Of a stretch of 64,000 bases of DNA, positions 246 through 36,377 are shown one piece after another (the first letter of the stretch is position 1; each line of letters opens with the position of its first letter). The notes below the pieces were generated by a model. The model was given only the letters and a program-made list of their open reading frames with translations, was not told the DNA's origin and searched no databases. The position numbers were made by a program, and so were the translations under genes. Source of the DNA: Minisyncoccota bacterium (lineage in GTDB: Bacteria; Patescibacteriota; Minisyncoccia; Phycocordibacterales; UBA2100). The DNA is taken from positions 114-64,113 of the forward strand of contig JARLIE010000112.1 in the NCBI GenBank assembly GCA_031291875.1. The letters are read 5' to 3'.

Positions 246-964
246 TCGATTGGTCGACACTCATCCTCGCTGTTTGCGCCGGATTCTTCCCGGCACTCGC
301 GTGGCTCTGGTTTTGGCTTCGCGAAGACAGCGAGCATCCCGAGCCGCGCCGTTTGATCGCACTCGCCTTTGCCGGCGGCATGGTCATGATCGCGGTCGTA
401 ATCCCGATCGAGGAATACGTGCAGACGCTTCCCCTCTTTGTCGCCTCGCAAATCCTGCTCCTCACCGCATGGGCCGGCATTGAAGAATTTTGCAAATACC
501 TCGCTGCTCGAACACTCGTATTGTGGCGCCGCGAAGATGACGAACCGATCGACCCGGTCATCTATATGGTGACGACCGCACTCGGCTTTTCAGCGGTCGA
601 AAACGCGTTGTTTCTCGCCTCGCCACTGGGCGGCGGCACGTTGCTCGCGACAATCCAAACCGGCGATCTGCGATTCGTCGGCGCAACGCTCGTGCACGTC
701 CTTTCCTCATCGGTTATCGGTCTCATGCTCGGCATCACGTTTTATGATCGCCGCAAATGGATGCGCCCGTACGCAGTCACACTTGGAGTTATCCTCGCCA
801 CGCTTTTGCATGGAGCTTTCAATTTCTTTATACTGAATGCAGGATCGCAGCAAACGATCCTCGTGCTCACGTTCGTGTGGGGTGGAGTCATACTGCTCTT
901 GGCCGCACTCGAATGGATCAAGCGTATTCGACCTCGAGCGCAAGGTGCACAAAACTTCAACTAA
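242..964 (+). CDS. PrsW-family intramembrane metalloprotease (alternative start 224)
   Basis: Polytopic membrane protein with the PrsW motifs EEFCKY (EExxK), FSAVENALF and HVLSS. The ATG at 242 overlaps the valS stop. Confidence 0.7.
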   Translation: MIDWSTLILAVCAGFFPALAWLWFWLREDSEHPEPRRLIALAFAGGMVMIAVVIPIEEYVQTLPLFVASQILLLTAWAGIEEFCKYLAARTLVLWRREDDEPIDPVIYMVTTALGFSAVENALFLASPLGGGTLLATIQTGDLRFVGATLVHVLSSSVIGLMLGITFYDRRKWMRPYAVTLGVILATLLHGAFNFFILNAGSQQTILVLTFVWGGVILLLAALEWIKRIRPRAQGAQNFN

Positions 965-994
965 TCTTCATGGGTAATCGGTGAAACTATTTCT

Positions 995-1489
995 ATGGCA
1001 AAAGGAGGATTCTTTTCAAAACTAACTGGTAAGACGGAAGACTACGGCGACTACCTCGACGAGCTTGAGGGGGCGCACGCGAAATTCGAAGGCACCGGCG
1101 CAGAGCGTCACGCACATATCTCCACGCGCGATGAAGACTGGAAGCCGCAAGAAGATCCGGGAGGTGAATTGGCCGTCGACGTGTACCAAACCAACGACGC
1201 GATCGTCGTTAAGGCTTTCATTGCCGGCGTACAACCAACAACCATCGACATTTCCCTCACCCGCGAAATGCTCACGATCTCAGGCCAACGCCAAGACGAG
1301 CGCGAAGTCGAAGAAGAAGACTACTATCAGAAGGAGCTCTTTTGGGGCTCGTTCTCACGCACCATTCTCCTTCCGGAGGAGGTCGATGTCGACCTCGCCG
1401 AAGCCTCCGAAAAGCACGGTATTTTGATGATCCGTTTGCCGAAGATCAACAAGGGCAAACAAACAAAGCTTAAGGTAAGAAGCCGTTAG
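995..1489 (+). CDS. Hsp20/alpha-crystallin small heat-shock protein
   Basis: Alpha-crystallin domain signature: AVDVYQT..IVVKA..AGV....IDISL..LTISGQR.....F.R...LP..VD...A....GIL.I.LPK. Confidence 0.85.
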   Translation: MAKGGFFSKLTGKTEDYGDYLDELEGAHAKFEGTGAERHAHISTRDEDWKPQEDPGGELAVDVYQTNDAIVVKAFIAGVQPTTIDISLTREMLTISGQRQDEREVEEEDYYQKELFWGSFSRTILLPEEVDVDLAEASEKHGILMIRLPKINKGKQTKLKVRSR

Positions 1490-2367
1490 TCCTCGAGAAG
1501 TCCGAGGCGATACACATCGAAGGAATTCTCTCCTTCAAACATATCCGACGGATTCGGAAGGTAGAGGCGGGGGCGTGAGATCTCGTCCGTCGCATCTTTG
1601 AGCAGCCGGTGGAAGACTTTAAAATCCTCGGCGCATTCTTGATAATCGATCACATAGCGTTTGAGTTGCGGCGAGCCGTCAGCGTTGCGCGATTTTTTGC
1701 ATTCATAAATCATGAATCGGCGCACCGGCTTCCCAAACGCTTCCTTAACCGTGTAGTAATTGAAAAGCGCCTGCATCACAAATAGCGTCTTACTCCCTTT
1801 CTGTTTACTAAATTGATCGACGAACTTATGGTCGACGATATCGACGCTTCCCTTTTCGAGTTTGGACTCGACGACGAGATCTGAGATCGCCTTGACCGGA
1901 AGCGGCAAGCCCTCCACCTTGGCCATGCCCGAGAACTCGACACCAAGCACAGTGTGTTTTGGCGGCTTTTCGAGATAGAAATTGATGACCTGCAAGTATT
2001 CCCGTTCCATGCTCGCGCGTTTCGCTTTCTTTGCCGCTTTTGATTTGGCCTTGCCGAAGTTGATGTCGAAATCCGCCGTATCGCGCAAATACTCGAGCCC
2101 AAGTTCGATCGAACCGTCTTTGCCGATGCCCGAATAAAAGTGCTGCAGGGCAAGGTGCGCCGAGCTTCCGATGACGGAAGCCGGATTGCGCGGCGTATCG
2201 TAGATTTTTTCTACATAACGCTTGTACCACGCTAAGGGATTGCGCAGCAGGGCCATCAGTGAAGAGTGGCTCCAGTACTTGATTGGGTACTGCGGTGTGA
2301 GCGCTGCAACTTCAGCGTCGTGCTTCCATTGCTCGAGATCGCTACGAATCTTGGAGGGCACTGCCAT
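1486..2367 (-). CDS. RecB/Cas4-like PD-(D/E)XK nuclease, stand-alone, no Fe-S Cys cluster
   Basis: Motifs SHSSLxxxxxNPxxWYxxY (motif I), ISDLVVE plus VDIVDHK (D...D/ExK), and QALFNYY (QxxxY). Confidence 0.5.
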   Translation of the reverse strand: MAVPSKIRSDLEQWKHDAEVAALTPQYPIKYWSHSSLMALLRNPLAWYKRYVEKIYDTPRNPASVIGSSAHLALQHFYSGIGKDGSIELGLEYLRDTADFDINFGKAKSKAAKKAKRASMEREYLQVINFYLEKPPKHTVLGVEFSGMAKVEGLPLPVKAISDLVVESKLEKGSVDIVDHKFVDQFSKQKGSKTLFVMQALFNYYTVKEAFGKPVRRFMIYECKKSRNADGSPQLKRYVIDYQECAEDFKVFHRLLKDATDEISRPRLYLPNPSDMFEGENSFDVYRLGLLED

Positions 2368-2437
2368 GGCAAAAGTATACCAGCCGCAGCAAGCGGCGCT
2401 TCATCAGGGCTTTTTTGGCCTATGCTATAGTTAATTC

Positions 2438-2959
2438 ATGAAAACAACGACGCTCGCGTGGATCGCTGGCATATTGCTAATCCTGGTTGGTGGCTGGTAC
2501 GTGTGGATGCAAAGCGCACTCCCCGCTCCCCAGCAAGCAGCGATCACGAGCACTACGTCGCCCGACACCTCGAGCAGTACATCGGACCAGAGCACGAGCA
2601 GTCCCAATACAATCCAAAATAATCTTACGCTCGGCACCGATGCTACCTCGACGCTCGGTACCTACCTCATCGGCTACAACGGCATGACGCTCTACGCGTA
2701 TTCAAAAGATTCCACGGGGACGAGCACTTGCTACGACAAATGCTCCGAAACTTGGCCTCCCTATATCGTACCCAACGGCATGCAGCTCAACATCCAATCC
2801 GGCGTAACCGGGGCAAAGGCAGGCACCATCACGCGGGCCGACGGTACTGTCCAAGTTACCTACAATGGCAAACCGCTGTACTTCTACAACGGCGACGTAA
2901 GTTCGGGAGACGTGACGGGCGAAAGCGTCGGCAATCTCTGGCGCGTAGTTAAGCCATAA
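2438..2959 (+). CDS. Secreted/lipoprotein of the 'Yx[FWY]xxD secreted repeat' family (COG4315-like)
   Basis: N-terminal TM/signal peptide and an S/T-rich linker. Two repeats match the family motif: GMTLYAYSKDSTG...CYDKCSETWPP and GKPLYFYNGDVSSGDVTGE...WRVV. Confidence 0.6.
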   Translation: MKTTTLAWIAGILLILVGGWYVWMQSALPAPQQAAITSTTSPDTSSSTSDQSTSSPNTIQNNLTLGTDATSTLGTYLIGYNGMTLYAYSKDSTGTSTCYDKCSETWPPYIVPNGMQLNIQSGVTGAKAGTITRADGTVQVTYNGKPLYFYNGDVSSGDVTGESVGNLWRVVKP

Positions 2960-3025
2960 AAACCACTGAAAGCAAGCGACACCGGTTACGTCTTCATGAT
3001 GTTAGGAGCTCATAATAACTAAACC

Positions 3026-3337
3026 ATGCTTCTCTCTCTTATCGTCGGCATTATTCTCGGGGCCATCGCAGTCGTGTTCGCGTTTCAAAACGTAGCGGTC
3101 GTCACGGTAAGTTTCTTTACCTGGCAAATCAGCGCTTCGCTCGCCATCGTGATCTTGGGCTCCATACTTTGCGGTATTGTCCTTACGCTCCTTGTGCTCT
3201 TGCCGAGCGTTATTCGCGATGAAATCTTTGTGGCGACACTCAAGCGTCAAAAGCGAGATCTTGAAAACCAGCTCGCTCAAACGCGAACTCCGCAGCCCGC
3301 TGCGGCTCCGGCCGGGAACGTCGCGTCCTCGATTTGA
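3026..3337 (+). CDS. LapA/DUF1049-like small inner-membrane protein
   Basis: 103 aa with two TM helices followed by a charged coiled tail (KRQKRDLENQLAQ), the typical LapA-domain architecture. Confidence 0.45.
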   Translation: MLLSLIVGIILGAIAVVFAFQNVAVVTVSFFTWQISASLAIVILGSILCGIVLTLLVLLPSVIRDEIFVATLKRQKRDLENQLAQTRTPQPAAAPAGNVASSI

Positions 3338-3392
3338 TTTCTTCTCGCTTCGGGTATACCGTGGAACCAGCCTAACCAAAAAGGAGGTAGCC

Positions 3393-3803
3393 ATGACCAC
3401 CTGTACCGTTCTTGGCGTTGGGATCTCTAGCTTCGCTCGCGAACAGATTGTCGCGTCTATACACAATGGGTTCGTGCGTCGAGGCCGGACCTGGAATACG
3501 AGCGAGCTGAGGATCGCGGAAAATTGCGAGGAAGCGGTGTCTCTCGCGAGGTCGCATCAGCTCGACGTCGTGCATTTTTGCAACCAAACCGGCATCAAGC
3601 CGTTGCGGTATTCACACAAGTGCGAACAGTTGGCAGCGCTCTTCGAGCTCTATCACGAGCCACCGCTCCTATGTTCGATGGACTACCCGCTGCTGCAGCG
3701 GCTCACGCCAACGTTCGTGCGTCATAACATGCTGATTCGGCACTGTGATCTGAGTGACGGTATTTACCAAAGCTATATACGGCGGCGTCAGAAGACCGCG
3801 TAA
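3393..3803 (+). CDS. Hypothetical protein (136 aa)
   Basis: ATG is 6 nt after a consensus SD (AAAGGAGG). The longer track ORF 3177..3803 is an upstream extension in the same frame. It is followed by a hairpin terminator. No recognisable domain; the N-terminus VLGVGISSF..EQIV is only vaguely WecB/TagA-like. Confidence 0.45.
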   Translation: MTTCTVLGVGISSFAREQIVASIHNGFVRRGRTWNTSELRIAENCEEAVSLARSHQLDVVHFCNQTGIKPLRYSHKCEQLAALFELYHEPPLLCSMDYPLLQRLTPTFVRHNMLIRHCDLSDGIYQSYIRRRQKTA

Positions 3804-28446: not shown

Positions 28447-29943
28447 TTAGACTCGAGCGATAACGATGCGCGGCGCGCCGCCATCGGTTACAACCTTCAT
28501 CGAGTCGCTGGTCGGGCGGGTGTGCGCGAAACCCGGGAGCGAATCTATGGTCGCTGTCTGCACCGGAGCCGGTTTGGCTGCGACGGTGCTCGCGACGGAA
28601 GTCTCGATCTTGTGTTCGACGACCGGAGCCGCTGCAACCACATGCTTTTCGACAGTCGTCTTGCGAGCGACCAGGGCGAATTTGCGAGCAGGAATCATCG
28701 AGCCCGCGAAAGCCGCCATACCTCCCTTGTAATACACGAGCAGGTAGCCTGCCGAGAAGGCGAAGGCAACGAGCATCGTCCAGTACATCGCGTCACCTGT
28801 CGTTCCGAAGTCGAAACCGGTGTACGGGATCTGCGAGAGCGTTACGGACGGAGTCTGCGGGTAGTAAGAGCCGACGTTCACGTACGTGTTGCACGTAGCC
28901 GTCTGACCGTTGTACCCGTAGACCGTGAGCACGTAGTTCATCGAGCCGTACGGGCGCACACTGAGGCTTCCGTTCGGAGCGACGTTGCCGTAGCTCGAGA
29001 GCGTTGCCGAAGTCGCGCCGTAGCTCTGCCAGGTAAGGTAGGTGTACTGACCGCTTTGGATCGAGTTCGGCGAAGCCGTGATGGTGCAGGAAACGTTCTG
29101 GTAGTTGTAGTTGGTCGGGAACGTGTACTGAACCGGGTACGTGATCGGTGTTTGGGAGACCGGAACGACCGTCGTGACTGTGTTGCCGCTATTGCTGACG
29201 TTGGTAACCGTATTGCAGCTGTAGTTGGTGCAGGTGTTGTTGGTGACGATGTTTGGCTGAGGCTGAACGACCGGCGTAATGATCTGCTGTTGCTGACGCT
29301 GCTGCTGGTACGCGATCGGAATGTTTTGGACGATCGGCGCCGACGGGATGTAGGTCGATCCACCGCCGTACGAGTAACCGCCGGTTGAATAGCCGCCGCT
29401 CGAGAAGCCGTAGCTTGCAGGCGCGGAGATTACTGCTGGGGTCGAATAGCTGGAGGTGGTGTAGCCGGATTCAGTCGCGGTCGTCGGAAATTCCGAGTAC
29501 GTTACGCCGCTTTCGGTGACGCAGCTGGAGCAGTCCGTCGTTGGAAACTCGCTGTATGTCGTGTTCGGAAATTCGCTGTAGGAGCTCGGGAACTCGCTGT
29601 AAGTGGAACAGTCGGTAGAACAACCCGACGGGAAATCACTGTAGGTGCTTCCGCTGTCGTAGCCCATATTGTTCGAACTTCCGCTGTCGTACCCCATGTT
29701 GTACGAGCTGCCGGTTGAGTCATAGCCCACATTGTTCGAGCTGCCGCTTGAGTCGTAGCCCATGTTGTATGAGCCGCTGCCGGAGTCGTAGCCCATATCG
29801 TACGAACCGCCGCTTGAGTCGTAGCCCATGTCTTGTGCATGCGCGAACACGACCGGAATGGCGATCGCGAAGAAACCAATCGCGAGCGTGAACAGTTTCG
29901 AATTTTTGGTCAAGATACTCATAAGTTTTGTAGTGTTTTCCAC
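28447..29943 (-). CDS. Secreted/surface-anchored repetitive protein (498 aa): signal peptide, MGYDSxGSSxN tandem repeats, YSEFP repeats, S/T/Y/Q-rich region, beta-rich domain, C-terminal TM segment
   Basis: Signal peptide MSILTKNSKLFTLAIGFFAIAIPVVFAHAQ (start may be ATG 29922). Seven tandem ~11-aa repeats (DNA period ~33 bp at ~29630-29840) and five xYSEFP repeats. A late hydrophobic helix WTMLVAFAFSAGYLLVYY is preceded by IPYTG. Confidence 0.6.
   Translation of the reverse strand: MENTTKLMSILTKNSKLFTLAIGFFAIAIPVVFAHAQDMGYDSSGGSYDMGYDSGSGSYNMGYDSSGSSNNVGYDSTGSSYNMGYDSGSSNNMGYDSGSTYSDFPSGCSTDCSTYSEFPSSYSEFPNTTYSEFPTTDCSSCVTESGVTYSEFPTTATESGYTTSSYSTPAVISAPASYGFSSGGYSTGGYSYGGGSTYIPSAPIVQNIPIAYQQQRQQQQIITPVVQPQPNIVTNNTCTNYSCNTVTNVSNSGNTVTTVVPVSQTPITYPVQYTFPTNYNYQNVSCTITASPNSIQSGQYTYLTWQSYGATSATLSSYGNVAPNGSLSVRPYGSMNYVLTVYGYNGQTATCNTYVNVGSYYPQTPSVTLSQIPYTGFDFGTTGDAMYWTMLVAFAFSAGYLLVYYKGGMAAFAGSMIPARKFALVARKTTVEKHVVAAAPVVEHKIETSVASTVAAKPAPVQTATIDSLPGFAHTRPTSDSMKVVTDGGAPRIVIARV
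29630..29840 (-). repeat. Coding tandem repeat (~33-bp period, 7 copies) encoding MGYDS[SG]GSS[YN]N
   Basis: Seen directly in the DNA: gtagcccat[ag]ttgt[at]cga[ga]c[ct][gt]ccg... units. The copies are diverged at the DNA level. Confidence 0.7.
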
Positions 29944-30686: not shown

Positions 30687-31238
30687 TCAGCGATACCCGG
30701 CACATGCGCTGCGACCGGGAAATTCCTTGGACGGCACCAAGCTGCCTCCTCGGGCCGTGCATTCCTCAGGATTGCGCGGAGCTCCGGGAACGTACCCTGG
30801 CCCTGCTACAGCGACGTGAACGCCGCCACCGTAGTACCCGGTGCTTGCCGAAGGACAAGGTTGCACGTTGGGAATGTTTTGTCCTGTCGGACAACACACC
30901 GGCAGCGATGGCCTCACGACGATGGGCGGCGCGGGGATCCGATGGATCACCGGCTGCTCGACGACGTAAATGTCCTTGCGGACCGTCACTGTTTCCGGCG
31001 GCGGAGGCGTCACCTCCACCGGCTTTTGCGGTGCGCAGCACGGCACCTTAACCCGGTGCCTGAAATGCCGATACACCGGTACGCGGACAAGTCTCTCCTC
31101 GTACCCGACGACCCGTTTGGAGGTCACCGTACGTTCACAGCATTCCGAGGTATATCCCGCTTCGCCGGCGCGAGCCGACGAGACGAAAGACGTGAGGCCC
31201 GCACACAGGAGGGCCGCGCACAAAATCACGATTCTCAT
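30687..31238 (-). CDS. Secreted Cys-containing protein (183 aa) with a conserved ~42-aa C-terminal domain shared with 31416..31853
   Basis: SD AAGGAG. Signal peptide MRIVILCAALLCAGLTSFVSSARA. C-terminal VAVAGPGYVPGAPRNPEECTARGGSLVPSKEFPGRSACAGYR; the paralog ends VAVATPGYVPGAPRNPSECVARGGAVVPSRMYPGRSACAGFQ. Confidence 0.55.
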   Translation of the reverse strand: MRIVILCAALLCAGLTSFVSSARAGEAGYTSECCERTVTSKRVVGYEERLVRVPVYRHFRHRVKVPCCAPQKPVEVTPPPPETVTVRKDIYVVEQPVIHRIPAPPIVVRPSLPVCCPTGQNIPNVQPCPSASTGYYGGGVHVAVAGPGYVPGAPRNPEECTARGGSLVPSKEFPGRSACAGYR

Positions 31239-31415: not shown

Positions 31416-31853
31416 TCATTGGAATCCCGCACACGCACTGCGGCCGGGATACATTCTTGAAGGAACTACCGCCCCACCGCGAGCAACGCATTCGCTGGGA
31501 TTTCGCGGAGCGCCAGGCACATATCCAGGAGTAGCGACTGCCACCCTCGGACCGCCCCCGTTGAAGCTCGGACCGCCGCTGTTTGCGACAGCTCCGCCCC
31601 CCGCGTCACTGCCGAGGCGTTGTGCAGCTCGGCATCCGACCCCAGTTGTGTCGCATAGAAGCGCCACGGTAGTCGGAAGGATGTAATTGGTAAGCGCCAT
31701 GAGAATACCGATTGCGACGCCGACCCAGATGAGTGCATTTCTTGCTCCTGCAGGCATTACAGGGTTCTCCTTTTTTCCATGATCGTCGCCTTTCTTTTTG
31801 TCGTCGGGTTTCTTTTGATCGTGACCGTGTCCATGATCGTCGCTCATTTTCAC
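31416..31853 (-). CDS. Single-pass membrane protein (145 aa): His-rich cytoplasmic N-terminus (DDHGHGHD), one TM helix, and an extracellular Cys C-terminal domain paralogous to 30687..31238
   Basis: Upstream promoter-like TTGACT-16-TACAAT and a terminator before it. The conserved C-terminal domain is described above. Confidence 0.55.
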   Translation of the reverse strand: MKMSDDHGHGHDQKKPDDKKKGDDHGKKENPVMPAGARNALIWVGVAIGILMALTNYILPTTVALLCDTTGVGCRAAQRLGSDAGGGAVANSGGPSFNGGGPRVAVATPGYVPGAPRNPSECVARGGAVVPSRMYPGRSACAGFQ

Positions 31854-33408: not shown

Positions 33409-33529
33409 GGAGAATCTCCCGTTGGATTGAACTGCGCAAAACCTGTACTGAAACGGCTTTGAAGTCAAGCAAAAAAGAAGAAGGCGCACCAGGGTGCGCC
33501 TTCAAAAGTTTGAACAAAGAACAGAATGA

Positions 33530-33949
33530 TCAGTTTCCGCGCGCGCCGTTACGGGGGCACGGACCGGAGTCGCAGTAGAAGATCCCGGTCGAGAGATCGC
33601 GGTGGCCAGTCCAGGGCGTCCTCTGCGGCGCGAATTGCTGGTGGCCGAACATGCCGATGATGCGGTATGCCATGCCGATTCCCGCTGGGACGGGAGTTCC
33701 ACCGCCCACGATCACGCCTTGCTGCTGATTCGGATAGTAGATCTGACCGTTGGGCAGGATCCCGTAGCCGCCCGGCGAAACGGGGCTGATCGTATGACCC
33801 GGATTGCTCCGATGCCACGTCTGCATCCAGCCGTCGTAGTCGGATCCGCACAGACCGCCGACATGAATGTTGCACGGCGGACCAGCGAATGCGGCCGACG
33901 AGAACATGAGAGCGACAGTCGTGATCAATGAGAAAACGATCTTACGCAT
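33530..33949 (-). CDS. Small secreted Gly/Pro-rich, Cys-containing protein (139 aa)
   Basis: Signal peptide MRKIVFSLITTVALMFSSAAFA. C-terminal CDSGPCPRNGARGN is vaguely reminiscent of the PRN..ARGG domain of the 30687/31416 paralogs. Confidence 0.45.
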   Translation of the reverse strand: MRKIVFSLITTVALMFSSAAFAGPPCNIHVGGLCGSDYDGWMQTWHRSNPGHTISPVSPGGYGILPNGQIYYPNQQQGVIVGGGTPVPAGIGMAYRIIGMFGHQQFAPQRTPWTGHRDLSTGIFYCDSGPCPRNGARGN

Positions 33950-34029
33950 TGAGTAGTCCTCCTTTGGAGTCCCGGAATGGAACCTTTATCTGTTTTAATT
34001 ATACACTTTAAAAGTGTATAAGTCAAGTG

Positions 34030-34584
34030 CTAGTACTTCCCTATTTTAAGCGGTGTACCGATCGCCACCGGTGTTCCAATCGAGACCGGAGCGCCGATGG
34101 AGACGGCGCTACCAATCGTGGCTGGCTGCGCGATTTGCACGGCATGAGCTATCTGAACCGGATGCGCGATTTGTGTTGGGGTTGCGATGGTTACGGCGTG
34201 CGCGATCGAGACTGCCGATGCGATAGTAACGGGATGCGCGATTGTGACGGGCGATGCGATTTGTACTGGCGAGGCTATCTGCACAGGTGAAGCAATGGTG
34301 ACAGCGTGAGCGATTTGCACAGCACTGCCGATGGGTACTGCTGACGCGATCTGTACCGCGGAGGCGATAGGCACCGCGCTTCCTATGGCTGCCGCACTTG
34401 CGATAGAGGTTGCGCCGGCGATCGGAACAGCGCTTGCGATTGAGGCGGAGCTAGCAAAAGAAACAGCGCTTGCAATCGGCGCAGCGGAAGCGATCGAGCA
34501 GCCGCAGTCCTGCGCGTACGTTGCGACAGCGCTAAACGGAAGCGCGAGCAACAGCCCCGCAGTTATTTTGGCTCGTATGGTCAT
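34030..34584 (-). CDS. Secreted protein composed of 26 contiguous hexapeptide repeats [I-A/G-x-A/P-V/T-x] (left-handed beta-helix-like), 184 aa
   Basis: Signal peptide MTIRAKITAGLLLALPFSAVATYAQD is followed by IASAAP IASAVS ... IGTPLK. The repeats fit the LbH consensus [LIV]-[GAED]-x2-[STAV]-x. DNA period is 18 bp (~34038-34506). The gene starts 5 nt downstream of the sortase stop. Confidence 0.6.
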   Translation of the reverse strand: MTIRAKITAGLLLALPFSAVATYAQDCGCSIASAAPIASAVSFASSASIASAVPIAGATSIASAAAIGSAVPIASAVQIASAVPIGSAVQIAHAVTIASPVQIASPVQIASPVTIAHPVTIASAVSIAHAVTIATPTQIAHPVQIAHAVQIAQPATIGSAVSIGAPVSIGTPVAIGTPLKIGKY

Positions 34585-34588
34585 ATGA

Positions 34589-35254
34589 TTATTGAGAAAC
34601 TACGCCGACGTAATGCGCGGTGAGAACGAAACGCGCACTGGTACCGGTGAGCGTATCGCAGGTTACGAGCGTGAGTTTTTGGCCCTGCGAAGGGTCGAGG
34701 CTGATGGTCGTGCCGTCGCCTGCATCCGCCTTCACAACGGAATCGACGCTGTAGAGGTACGCTTTGCCGTCGGCGCCATCGAGCTCAATCGAATCGCCGG
34801 GATTGAGGTTCGGGATCTGATTGAACGCTTGGAACATTTTATTGGTCACGATCGGCAGGTGCGAAGAGTGCGCGAAAATCAGCACATTGCCTTTGACGCC
34901 AAGCTGCGCTGAGCTGACGTAGCGGGCCGGTCCCTTATTGAGTAGCGCGTCGAGCGCGTCGACATCGGTAGTCGCAGGATTTTGCACCGGCAAGTCGATC
35001 CCGACCGAAGGAATTTTGATTTCGGTAGGTAAAACACCTTGTGTTGCTGTAGCAGCCGGGGCGTTATCTTCGACACCCAGCTGCGGCAACGAAGAGATGG
35101 CCACCTGATCGCACGTGCCATCGATTTGGCACGGAACGAAGCCGACGGAGTCGGCAGCACTAAGTGAAAGCGCAAAAACAACGACAGTTGTCGCGAGAAA
35201 GACCCCGAACGGAGGACTTTTTTTTGCTGGCTTTGCTGAATTGGCGGCGCTCAT
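34589..35254 (-). CDS. Sortase-family transpeptidase
   Basis: N-terminal TM anchor, IPSVGIDLPV (beta6/7), NVLIFAHSSH (catalytic His region), LTLVTCDT (TLxTC catalytic Cys) and RFVLTA (Arg). Confidence 0.85.
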   Translation of the reverse strand: MSAANSAKPAKKSPPFGVFLATTVVVFALSLSAADSVGFVPCQIDGTCDQVAISSLPQLGVEDNAPAATATQGVLPTEIKIPSVGIDLPVQNPATTDVDALDALLNKGPARYVSSAQLGVKGNVLIFAHSSHLPIVTNKMFQAFNQIPNLNPGDSIELDGADGKAYLYSVDSVVKADAGDGTTISLDPSQGQKLTLVTCDTLTGTSARFVLTAHYVGVVSQ

Positions 35255-35265
35255 AGGTAGCGAGA

Positions 35266-35293
35266 ATAATACATCATTATGTCAATTTGTCAA
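35266..35293 (-). promoter_or_regulatory. Sortase-operon promoter TTGACA-16-TATTAT, with clustered TGTCAA/TTGACA repeats in the divergent region
   Basis: Consensus -35, good -10, and only ~11 nt to the ATG, suggesting a very short leader. Two direct copies and one inverted copy of TGTCAA lie within 35280-35310. Confidence 0.5.
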
Positions 35294-35360
35294 TAAAGCT
35301 ACCTTGACAAAATCAATTCTGTATGCGAATATACGGGCACTAAAAACTAAGCGAAATTCT

Positions 35361-36377
35361 ATGGCAGAACACGCGCATCCCGAATTGCCGACAGCAGACT
35401 CTCACGATACCCACGAAGAGCGCAAGTCTTCCCTCTTGACCGATATTCTCACGATTATCGGTTTTGCCATTCTTTTCATTATCATCATTTGGGGCATCAT
35501 CCACTTGGTCGAGCTCATCGCGAGCTCGTTCTCTTCCAACGGCTCCAAGCCACAAGCGACGATCCAAGTAAGTGCGCCCGCAGAAGTCGTATCTGGGCAG
35601 CCTGTTACGATCTCGTGGAACTACCAAGCGCCTTCGAACGGTTCCTATGCGTTCTTGTATCAGTGCCAAAGCGGACTCTCCTTCCAGATGTCGACCGCAA
35701 AGGACTCGAATATCCCCTGCGGCGTCGCCTACTCGATTGGCAACGCGAGCAGTACCGTTGCCGGTAAAACGGGCTCGATCACGCTCATTCCGATGCTGAC
35801 GAGTACCTCTTCGGTGCGCGACACCGTCTCGCTTGTATTCATCCCGAGCCAGAGTGGCTCCCAAGTGCAGGGCACGGCAACCATGACGATTGACCCGGTA
35901 TCCAAAACGGTCACGCAAGTAAAAACGACTCAGCCGAGCTCTTCCGTGGTGAAAACGCGCGGCACCTCCTACGGCGGCCCCGCGGATCTCTCGGTGCGCA
36001 TCATATCGGCGTACGTGGATCAAACTGGTACCGGTATCGTCACCTTCGACATCGCGAATATCGGCGGTTCGACCAGCGACGCCTACACCTTCAGCGCACA
36101 GTTGCCGACCGCACAGTCGTACCCGTACGTCTCCCCGTTCCAAGCGCCGCTCGCTCCCGGATCGCACGTGACAAGTACCCTGCGCTTCACGGACGTTGCC
36201 TCGGGTGGCGGACTCTTCAGTGTCTCGATTCTCGACGGTCGCGATGCAAATCCGTCCGACGATTACGCTTCGACGCAGCTGAGCGCGCCGTACCAGCAGT
36301 ACGGACCAACGGGCTACAACAATTACAACAACTACCAGCCGGGACCCTACATCCAGTACCCGAACAATACGTACTAA
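35361..36377 (+). CDS. Membrane-anchored extracellular protein (338 aa): His-rich cytoplasmic N-terminus, one TM helix, S/T-rich beta-rich ectodomain, Y/N/Q-rich C-terminus
   Basis: MAEHAHPELPTADSHDTHEE, then TM LLTDILTIIGFAILFIIIIWGIIHLV. No known domain. The track ORF 35115.. is an upstream extension. Confidence 0.5.
   Translation: MAEHAHPELPTADSHDTHEERKSSLLTDILTIIGFAILFIIIIWGIIHLVELIASSFSSNGSKPQATIQVSAPAEVVSGQPVTISWNYQAPSNGSYAFLYQCQSGLSFQMSTAKDSNIPCGVAYSIGNASSTVAGKTGSITLIPMLTSTSSVRDTVSLVFIPSQSGSQVQGTATMTIDPVSKTVTQVKTTQPSSSVVKTRGTSYGGPADLSVRIISAYVDQTGTGIVTFDIANIGGSTSDAYTFSAQLPTAQSYPYVSPFQAPLAPGSHVTSTLRFTDVASGGGLFSVSILDGRDANPSDDYASTQLSAPYQQYGPTGYNNYNNYQPGPYIQYPNNTY

Follow-up and report, generated by a model that had tools for sequence, protein, structure and literature searches.

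A gene for a predicted secreted protein of pure hexapeptide repeats lies directly behind a sortase gene in Candidatus Kaiserbacteria and related Patescibacteria

What is the role of a short, apparently exported protein that consists of little more than one hexapeptide repeated 25 times, and what does it mean that its gene directly follows a sortase gene? This question is raised by a stretch of 64,000 nucleotides (hereafter the window) of contig JARLIE010000112.1, from a Minisyncoccota bacterium (assembly GCA_031291875.1), in which the two genes lie side by side on the minus strand. Bacteria of the candidate phyla radiation (CPR, or Patescibacteria) are mostly uncultured and dependent on other cells, and their envelope proteins are largely unknown. 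An earlier reading of the locus, made from the nucleotide sequence without database searches (the sequence-only reading), had proposed a sortase co-transcribed with a secreted protein fitting the left-handed beta-helix (LbH) consensus, which might act as a surface fibre or matrix protein. With moderate confidence, we favour the view that the hexad protein is an exported, non-enzymatic beta-solenoid that serves as a structural or surface protein of the CPR envelope and is co-expressed with a housekeeping sortase.

The upstream gene encodes a real sortase, as had been proposed; the enzyme is catalytically intact, and its gene lies directly upstream of the open reading frame (ORF) for pure hexads. 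Residues 79-215 match the sortase domain (Pfam PF04203) at E 3.9e-19, the score of 69.1 bits being well above the cutoff of 26.6, and the catalytic residues H129, C199 (within LVTCD) and R208 do not vary among 23 homologs. Because this His-Cys-Arg triad is invariant, the enzyme is presumably active. None of the NCBIfam models for sortase classes A-F and GN reaches its cutoff; class E scores best (39.6 bits against 160), followed by class F (32.3 against 166) and class C (27.5 against 160), and the closest solved structures are found at E 3e-5 at best. Both ORFs lie on the minus strand exactly where the sequence-only reading had placed them, with the hexad gene downstream. The gap between them is 4 nucleotides (34585..34588, TAA-tcat-ATG) rather than the 5 first reported, and this gap together with a shared promoter makes the proposed co-transcription likely. 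The promoter, described earlier as near-consensus and almost abutting the start codon, is indeed present at 35293..35266(-), and three related genomes (L002, L003 and L004) share both of its boxes, -35 and -10, as well as their distance from the ATG. This conservation suggests that the promoter is real, and since the -10 box ends 11 nucleotides before the sortase ATG, the transcript would be leaderless or nearly so.

The downstream gene specifies a protein with three recognizable parts: a predicted signal peptide, a short segment with a pair of cysteines and the hexad array. The N-terminus opens with a basic n-region (R4/K6), which gives way to a hydrophobic core, and the residues at -3 and -1 are small (T-Y-A, with the cut before Q); 40 of 40 distinct members of the family described below likewise combine a hydrophobic N-terminus with an A-x-A-like site behind it. 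These features predict export by the Sec pathway and cleavage after residue 24. A lipoprotein reading of the first Cys was considered and rejected: Q-D precedes this residue, there is no lipobox, and only a few relatives (with ASA and then C) look similar. The array comprises 25 complete hexads from residue 31 onwards, uninterrupted by any indel, and ends in the four residues IGKY and the stop codon; the 26 hexads counted previously are therefore 25 full repeats and a partial one. Position 1 of the hexad is Ile in 24 repeats and Phe in one, position 2 is Ala (19) or Gly (6), position 4 is Ala (14), Pro (10) or Ser (1), and position 5 is Val (18), Ala (4), Thr (2) or Leu (1), with Ser, His and Thr and Gln, Ser, Thr and Pro making up positions 3 and 6. 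The mature protein is 25% Ala, 16% Ile, 14% Ser, 11% Val and 9% Pro, and its only ionisable residues are one Asp, two Lys and five His. Neither the sequence nor Pfam reveals a cap at the ends of the array, an insert, a catalytic loop or another domain. The protein had been described as lacking an LPxTG-type C-terminus, and we agree: its end (...IGTPLKIGKY) holds no sorting signal, that is, no LPXTG-like motif with a hydrophobic or transmembrane segment and a basic tail.

The hexad pattern is far beyond chance. When about 0.5 Mb of DNA (the window and the related loci) was read in all six frames, runs of at least five hexads occurred only in the gene that follows the sortase and in one paralog, in locus L015. 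The array had also been described as a DNA repeat with a period of 18 bp; at the DNA level it is degenerate, and Tandem Repeats Finder reports only short pieces with 64-80% match. The 18-bp units share a mean pairwise identity of 53% (maximum 83%), the major-allele frequency is 0.71 at the first, 0.77 at the second and 0.40 at the third codon position, and all four Ala codons and all four Val codons are in use. Third codon positions are thus scrambled while the protein pattern is kept, and the repeats are therefore old and maintained by protein-level selection in the minus-strand frame, not a recent slippage array.

The pairing of a sortase with a hexad protein recurs in other genomes, where the sequence-only reading had suggested looking for it, and it is also recovered when the search starts from the hexad protein. 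A sortase scan of one genome per GTDB species yielded 30 loci, and a metagenome scan added 80 more. The 30 loci all come from metagenome-assembled genomes of Candidatus Kaiserbacteria, Paceibacterota or other Patescibacteria, with sortases 41-86% identical, and related genomes keep the gene order pheT - gyrB - divergent membrane protein - sortase. The genome of the window is itself of this CPR type (Ca. Kaiserbacteria/Paceibacterota). In about half of these 30 loci the gene right after the sortase encodes a signal-peptide hexad protein; counting at least four in-register hexads in the next gene as a hexad gene, the pair is present in 51 of 94 evaluable related loci from genomes and metagenomes, and in L001 the two genes overlap. 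From the opposite direction, a hexad profile was run with HMMER exhaustively against 1.84 billion representatives and gave only 168 matches at E <= 1e-3. Five of these (P0001, P0003, P0005, P0012 and P0023) are short, genuine relatives, and each lies directly after another gene. This gene is a Pfam-annotated Sortase before P0012 and P0005 and a sortase by translation before P0001 and P0023; before P0003 it is a partial ORF, so that its identity as a sortase is established for the other four of the five only. The remaining matches are either LbH enzymes or fibre-like proteins of very large size with related repeats. The strongest matches outside the family, P0002, P0004, P0006 and P0009, are proteins of three to four thousand residues with long runs of 6- or 12-residue repeats (STLSVANAVTLS-like), and the C-terminal ends of some of them presumably resemble tail-spike intramolecular-chaperone domains. 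Word-indexed homolog searches, whether made with the single protein or with a 14-member alignment, returned only P0001, their lists being probably saturated by low-complexity proteins.

The family so defined is compact and easily recognised, with a signal peptide, often a Cys pair and then pure hexads, and it is without a Pfam model or a name. Our search of the literature found no paper that links a sortase with hexapeptide repeats or a left-handed beta-helix, nor one that links Kaiserbacteria with a sortase. The flavour of the repeat differs among relatives: I-A-[SH]-[AP]-V-x in the window, and I-G-Y-[AP]-V-x, V-G-R-x-V-x or S-V-T-V-A-x elsewhere. An extra N-terminal stretch, acidic, Tyr-rich or GGYG-rich, is present in many relatives. 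Among the 40 distinct members, a C-x(1-5)-C pair stands just after the signal peptide in 23, a Lys lies within the last 25 residues in 24, the array ends no more than eight residues from the C-terminus in 28, and a sorting signal is found in none. We note that a different, Tyr-rich repeat protein (SYDTSDSYRVGV... / ...MTGVYYxSY) follows the sortase in L011 (1022..1630) and L097; the slot behind the sortase appears to hold interchangeable secreted repeat proteins.

We next consider what fold such a sequence might adopt. All 25 hexads fit the LbH consensus [LIV]-[GAED]-x2-[STAV]-x if Phe is allowed once at position 1 and Leu once at position 5, and alignments to LpxD made with hidden Markov models and with hhalign place the hexads in the same register, the hhalign alignment spanning 21 columns that cover the bare motif only. 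The hexapeptide matches in Pfam and NCBIfam all stay below their curated cutoffs (Hexapep 22.8 against 27, LbH_EIF2B 32.5 against 54, LpxD 42.9 against 242.5), and among 14 relatives Hexapep matches one and LbH_EIF2B five. The bactofilin model (PF04519), another profile suggested by the sequence-only reading, does not match the hexad protein at E <= 1 or any of the 14 relatives at E <= 0.01. AlphaFold was run twice, on an alignment of 2 sequences and on one of 6, and its models reached a predicted local distance difference test (pLDDT) score of 46.5 and 48.5. Both show three-residue strands at a spacing of six residues in a low-confidence triangular beta-solenoid, and every structural neighbour of the model is a solenoid. 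On right-handed helices the model superimposes within 2-3 A, against about 12 A for LbH enzymes, and it fits best on a right-handed bactofilin. The proposal of a left-handed beta-helix thus keeps its consensus fit and its LpxD register; the left-handedness itself finds no support in these low-confidence models. The hexad protein is predicted to be a triangular beta-solenoid with some 18 residues per turn, its modelled handedness being unreliable.

Several observations weigh against the reading that we favour. A Foldseek search of the PDB with the model gives nothing significant, and the pLDDT is low in both runs (46-48). The sequence motif and the AlphaFold model conflict in handedness, the former pointing to LbH and the latter to a right-handed helix. 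Proline at position 4 of the hexad, present in 10 of 25 repeats, is atypical of LbH enzymes such as LpxA and LpxD. The variable positions have no periodicity of three hexads (18 residues) and only a slight one of two, which does not settle the length of the turn. About 46% of the related sortases have a different gene downstream, and since the pair is conserved within a single lineage and together with its flanking synteny, its conservation could reflect an inherited gene order and not a functional coupling. Finally, neither the Cys pair nor the C-terminal Lys is universal.

Taking these points into account, we propose the following course of events for the exported beta-solenoid. The sortase and the hexad protein would be produced from one operon, whose nearly leaderless mRNA would start at the near-consensus promoter conserved in related genomes, and the first product would be the membrane-anchored sortase of the cell. 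The second would be exported by Sec and lose its 24-residue signal peptide, leaving a chain of 160 residues that begins with Q-D-C-G-C-S and continues with the 25 hexads. This chain may fold into a triangular beta-solenoid in which three hexads (18 residues) form one turn; with about 8.5 turns the rod would measure roughly 4 nm, with a core filled by Ile and Val and an almost uncharged surface of Ser, Thr, Gln, His, Pro and Ala. The rods would probably associate with one another, side by side or end to end, with the N-terminal Cys pair available to staple subunits. That the ends of the array are uncapped suggests such self-association, and so does the Cys pair, because bacteria of the CPR commonly possess an extracytoplasmic disulfide-forming system, as they commonly possess sortases (PMC6744442). 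The tie to the sortase would be one of co-expression during assembly of the envelope and not one of canonical LPXTG sorting, and the hexad protein would work as a structural or adhesive component of that envelope. We infer the self-association, the dimensions of the solenoid and its function; that the protein is structural and non-enzymatic is suggested by its lack of inserts, catalytic loops, extra domains, end caps and a sorting signal. The earlier proposal of a surface fibre or matrix protein, as opposed to a sortase substrate, agrees with the lack of a sorting signal in all 40 relatives, and as to the role itself it is a reasonable inference. Beta-helical adhesins and fibres are known from tapirins, Candida Awp adhesins, L. 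reuteri SRRP, autotransporter passengers and the phage and giant-virus fibres with 6- or 12-residue repeats. These are large, multi-domain proteins with irregular coils and an anchor or chaperone domain, whereas the hexad protein is a bare repeat of 160 residues without an anchor. The hexad family is probably a lineage-specific, sortase-gene-linked surface protein of beta-solenoid repeats, of a kind that is known, the family itself being undescribed.

It is possible, if unlikely, that the mature chain forms no discrete solenoid at all and is instead a low-complexity, fast-evolving filler of the wall or matrix, either extended, amyloid-like with a cross-beta structure, or silk- or chaplin-like. 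The low pLDDT of both models would be expected of such a protein, the mature chain is hydrophobic and uncharged, and the slot behind the sortase holds unrelated Tyr-rich repeat proteins in L011 and L097. The flavour of the repeat also turns over rapidly (IASAVx, IGYAVx, VGRxVx and SVTVAx, besides the GGYG and EYYEY stretches). Yet the register is strict over 150 residues with no indel, and Ile or Val at position 1, Gly or Ala at position 2 and Val at position 5 are kept among loci whose sortases are only 50-86% identical, which argues for a packed core; that the structural neighbours of the model are without exception solenoids likewise speaks for a discrete fold. The chaplins of Streptomyces, which occur with class E sortases, are small secreted proteins, hydrophobic and rich in beta structure, that have a conserved Cys pair, form a surface layer and are tied to a sortase through the LAXTG signals of the long chaplins. 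They resemble the hexad protein in concept only, class E being the best, sub-threshold, class match of our sortase; there is no sequence similarity, and the LAXTG signal of the long chaplins has no counterpart in the 40 hexad relatives.

We also think it rather unlikely that the hexad protein is itself a direct, non-canonical client of the sortase, and we rank this idea next. The protein might serve as acceptor (nucleophile) in the ligation of an LPXTG-type protein, or it might be cleaved and polymerised at a motif within the repeat (for instance xPVT, cut, IG) into a covalent surface polymer. The genes are tightly juxtaposed, with the 4-nucleotide gap in the window and the overlap in L001, the association is found in both search directions, the sortase triad is intact, and in many members the only Lys residues of the protein lie among its last 25 residues, at the exposed position 3 of a hexad. 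Moreover, the most divergent of the sortases, that of L031, adjoins a canonical substrate with VPYTG, a transmembrane segment and KTRKR, so that the enzyme family appears to sort. Against a role as client, a C-terminal segment for retention in the membrane and an LPXTG-like motif with a hydrophobic tail are both absent from all 40 relatives, and P-x-T-I is not known to be a sortase site. Sixteen of the 40 lack the C-terminal Lys, among them the close relatives L037, L038 and L049, and no LPXTG donor protein is encoded within the 64-kb window. A conserved C-terminal Lys as sortase acceptor had looked promising among the first 20 members; it was demoted once the larger set gave only 24 of 40. 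In a screen of the 0.5 Mb of window and loci for LPXTG-type proteins, the single credible canonical substrate was the one in L031, and the window held none. The L031 locus (851..3648) comprises the divergent sortase, a 133-residue protein, the 181-residue protein with VPYTG, a hydrophobic segment and KTRKR, which is encoded about 640 nucleotides downstream of the sortase, and a 274-residue C-terminally anchored protein; it is the only classical arrangement of sortase and substrate among the loci. With the sortase-assembled pili and LPXTG surface proteins of Gram-positive bacteria, the hexad protein shares a sortase-adjacent gene and a product predicted to be exported by Sec, but it has neither the LPXTG motif, the hydrophobic tail and the basic C-terminus nor the pilin motif and the Ig-like domains of those proteins. 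The Pam pilus of the CPR, made of Ig-like pilins that are assembled by donor-strand exchange, is unrelated.

A more speculative version of the same theme, to which we give only a small chance, makes the hexad protein an extracellular counterpart of the bactofilins: an uncapped helix of 18 residues per turn that would polymerise end to end into a filament or sheath, stapled by N-terminal cystines and assembled or tethered by the sortase through a route other than LPXTG. The likeness to bactofilins such as BacA (PDB 2n3d) lies in the shape of the low-confidence model only. Bactofilins are cytoplasmic cytoskeletal proteins with disordered tails, whereas the hexad protein has a signal peptide and a strictly six-residue repeat; the predicted signal peptide argues against a cytoplasmic, bactofilin-like location.

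Two further readings are very improbable. In one, the hexad protein belongs to the LbH acyltransferase or gamma-carbonic-anhydrase superfamily in a degenerate or minimal form, as an enzyme remnant with a spurious signal peptide. Like the LbH proteins (Hexapep PF00132, with LpxA, LpxD, GlmU, PglD and gamma-carbonic anhydrase), it has the hexad consensus, the LpxD register and the implied triangular prism of 18 residues per turn, and it gives sub-threshold matches to the LpxD, LpxA, NeuD, GlmU and Hexapep models. These scores fall far below the cutoffs, as the LpxD match shows, Hexapep matches only one of the 14 relatives and LbH_EIF2B five, and the hhalign match is short. The LbH enzymes are cytoplasmic, with catalytic loops and flanking domains; the hexad protein is exported (by prediction) and consists of bare repeats with frequent Pro at position 4. 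Its repeats are not broken by inserted loops, no domain flanks them on either side, and neither a catalytic His nor a pattern of metal ligands is present; the hydrophobic N-terminus is kept in every relative. The enzyme fragment that the sequence-only reading had itself raised against its proposal is strongly disfavoured by this lack of loops, inserts and extra domains. In the other reading, which we consider no less doubtful, the protein is an ice-binding (antifreeze) or metal-binding beta-solenoid with a His ladder. Ser, Thr, Gln and His do occupy exposed positions and some relatives, such as P0001, are rich in His. There is, however, no regular T-x-T or similar flat array, the exposed positions are replaced wholesale among relatives (by Tyr, Arg, Asp or Glu), many members lack His, and the structural matches are generic to solenoids and come from a low-confidence model.

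That the gene is an annotation artefact, with the true gene on the other strand or in another frame or with a non-coding ORF, is refuted for all practical purposes: there are plus-strand shadow ORFs at 34027..34290 and 34331..34588, but the variability by codon position is compatible only with the minus-strand frame, the matches of the shadow ORFs are confined to their overlap with the homologous gene, and dozens of homologs share the orientation, the signal peptide and the repeat register, retaining the protein pattern while synonymous sites vary, so that the strand or frame error which the sequence-only reading had allowed for did not occur.

Features of the sortase-hexad locus, in coordinates of the window
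Feature	Position	Strand	Basis or remark
Hexad-repeat protein gene	34030..34584 (including stop codon)	(-)	184 aa; ORF list
Hexad array, residues 31-180, and terminal IGKY	34033..34494	(-)	25 hexads I-[AG]-x-[AP]-V-x
Cys27-Gly-Cys29 pair at start of mature hexad protein	34498..34506	(-)	Sequence; C-x(1-5)-C in 23/40 members
Predicted Sec signal peptide, residues 1-24 (MTIRAKITAGLLLALPFSAVATYA then QD)	34513..34584	(-)	Sequence reading
Sortase gene	34589..35254	(-)	221 aa; ORF list
Sortase catalytic Arg208	34631..34633	(-)	Invariant in 23 homologs
Sortase catalytic Cys199 in LVTCD	34658..34660	(-)	Invariant in 23 homologs
Sortase catalytic His129	34868..34870	(-)	Invariant in 23 homologs
Putative sortase N-terminal membrane anchor, about residues 16-34	35153..35209	(-)	Hydrophobic stretch FGVFLATTVVVFALSLSAA after basic N-terminus, by sequence reading
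Sigma-70-like promoter TTGACA-16-TATTAT	35266..35293	(-)	11/12 consensus positions; conserved boxes
Inverted repeat TTTGTCAA-N10-TTGACAAA	35286..35311	.	8 nt, 100% complementary; between divergent sortase and membrane-protein genes
Divergent conserved membrane-anchored protein	35361..36377	(+)	Start at MAEHAHPELP...; same position in 25/30 genome loci

The surroundings of the operon hold further features. The clustered TGTCAA repeats seen by the sequence-only reading in the divergent region are three TGTCAA/TTGACA copies at 35280..35309, and they form a perfect 8-nucleotide inverted repeat. One arm of this repeat is the -35 box of the sortase promoter and the other reads TTGACA toward the divergent gene; TTGTCAAG and ATTGACA are invariant in four genomes. 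The simplest reading of the inverted repeat is that it represents two back-to-back -35 boxes for the divergent genes, and it could also be an operator. The divergent gene probably starts at the ATG at 35361, which was chosen because the longest ORF, beginning at 35115, would run into the sortase gene. Its product has a Tyr/Asn/Pro-rich C-terminus, and one homolog bears a weak CARDB annotation.

On the other side, a strong promoter-like site, TTGACT-17-TATAAT (11/12; 34026..33998(-)) begins 4 nucleotides past the hexad stop codon and serves a gene at 33530..33949(-) that has a Shine-Dalgarno sequence AAGGAGG and encodes a secreted Gly/Pro-rich protein of 139 residues. This gene, which is followed by a terminator with a 10-bp stem at 33503..33480, has no homolog in the related loci. 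Further along the window, 31416..31853(-) and 30687..31238(-) encode small secreted proteins with the C-terminal motif G-Y-V-x-G-A-P-R-x-x-x-E-C-x-x-R-G-G...C (two Cys). Proteins with this motif, which have no Pfam match, are also encoded near the sortase locus in L001 (3763-4533, 4469-4918 and 5081-5740). A secreted protein of 498 residues (28447..29943(-)) carries N-terminal repeats of the DMGYDSSGGSY type; its C-terminal end (...LP....DSM.......APRIVIAR) is common to homologs in nine related loci and is not a canonical sorting signal.

What the pair means for these bacteria depends on which of the readings holds. If the hexad protein is merely a co-transcribed wall protein, its recognition would be a useful annotation and no surprise. 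If the sortase acts on it, the chemistry of sortases would extend beyond LPXTG signals. An extracellular bactofilin-like polymer, if real, would be a new sortase-associated surface polymer specific to Kaiserbacteria-type CPR bacteria, possibly for attachment to a host. If the hexad protein is a beta-solenoid, it would offer protein design a natural example of a minimal hexad solenoid without caps, and as a rod or filament on the cell surface it would represent a new envelope or adhesion component of this lineage.

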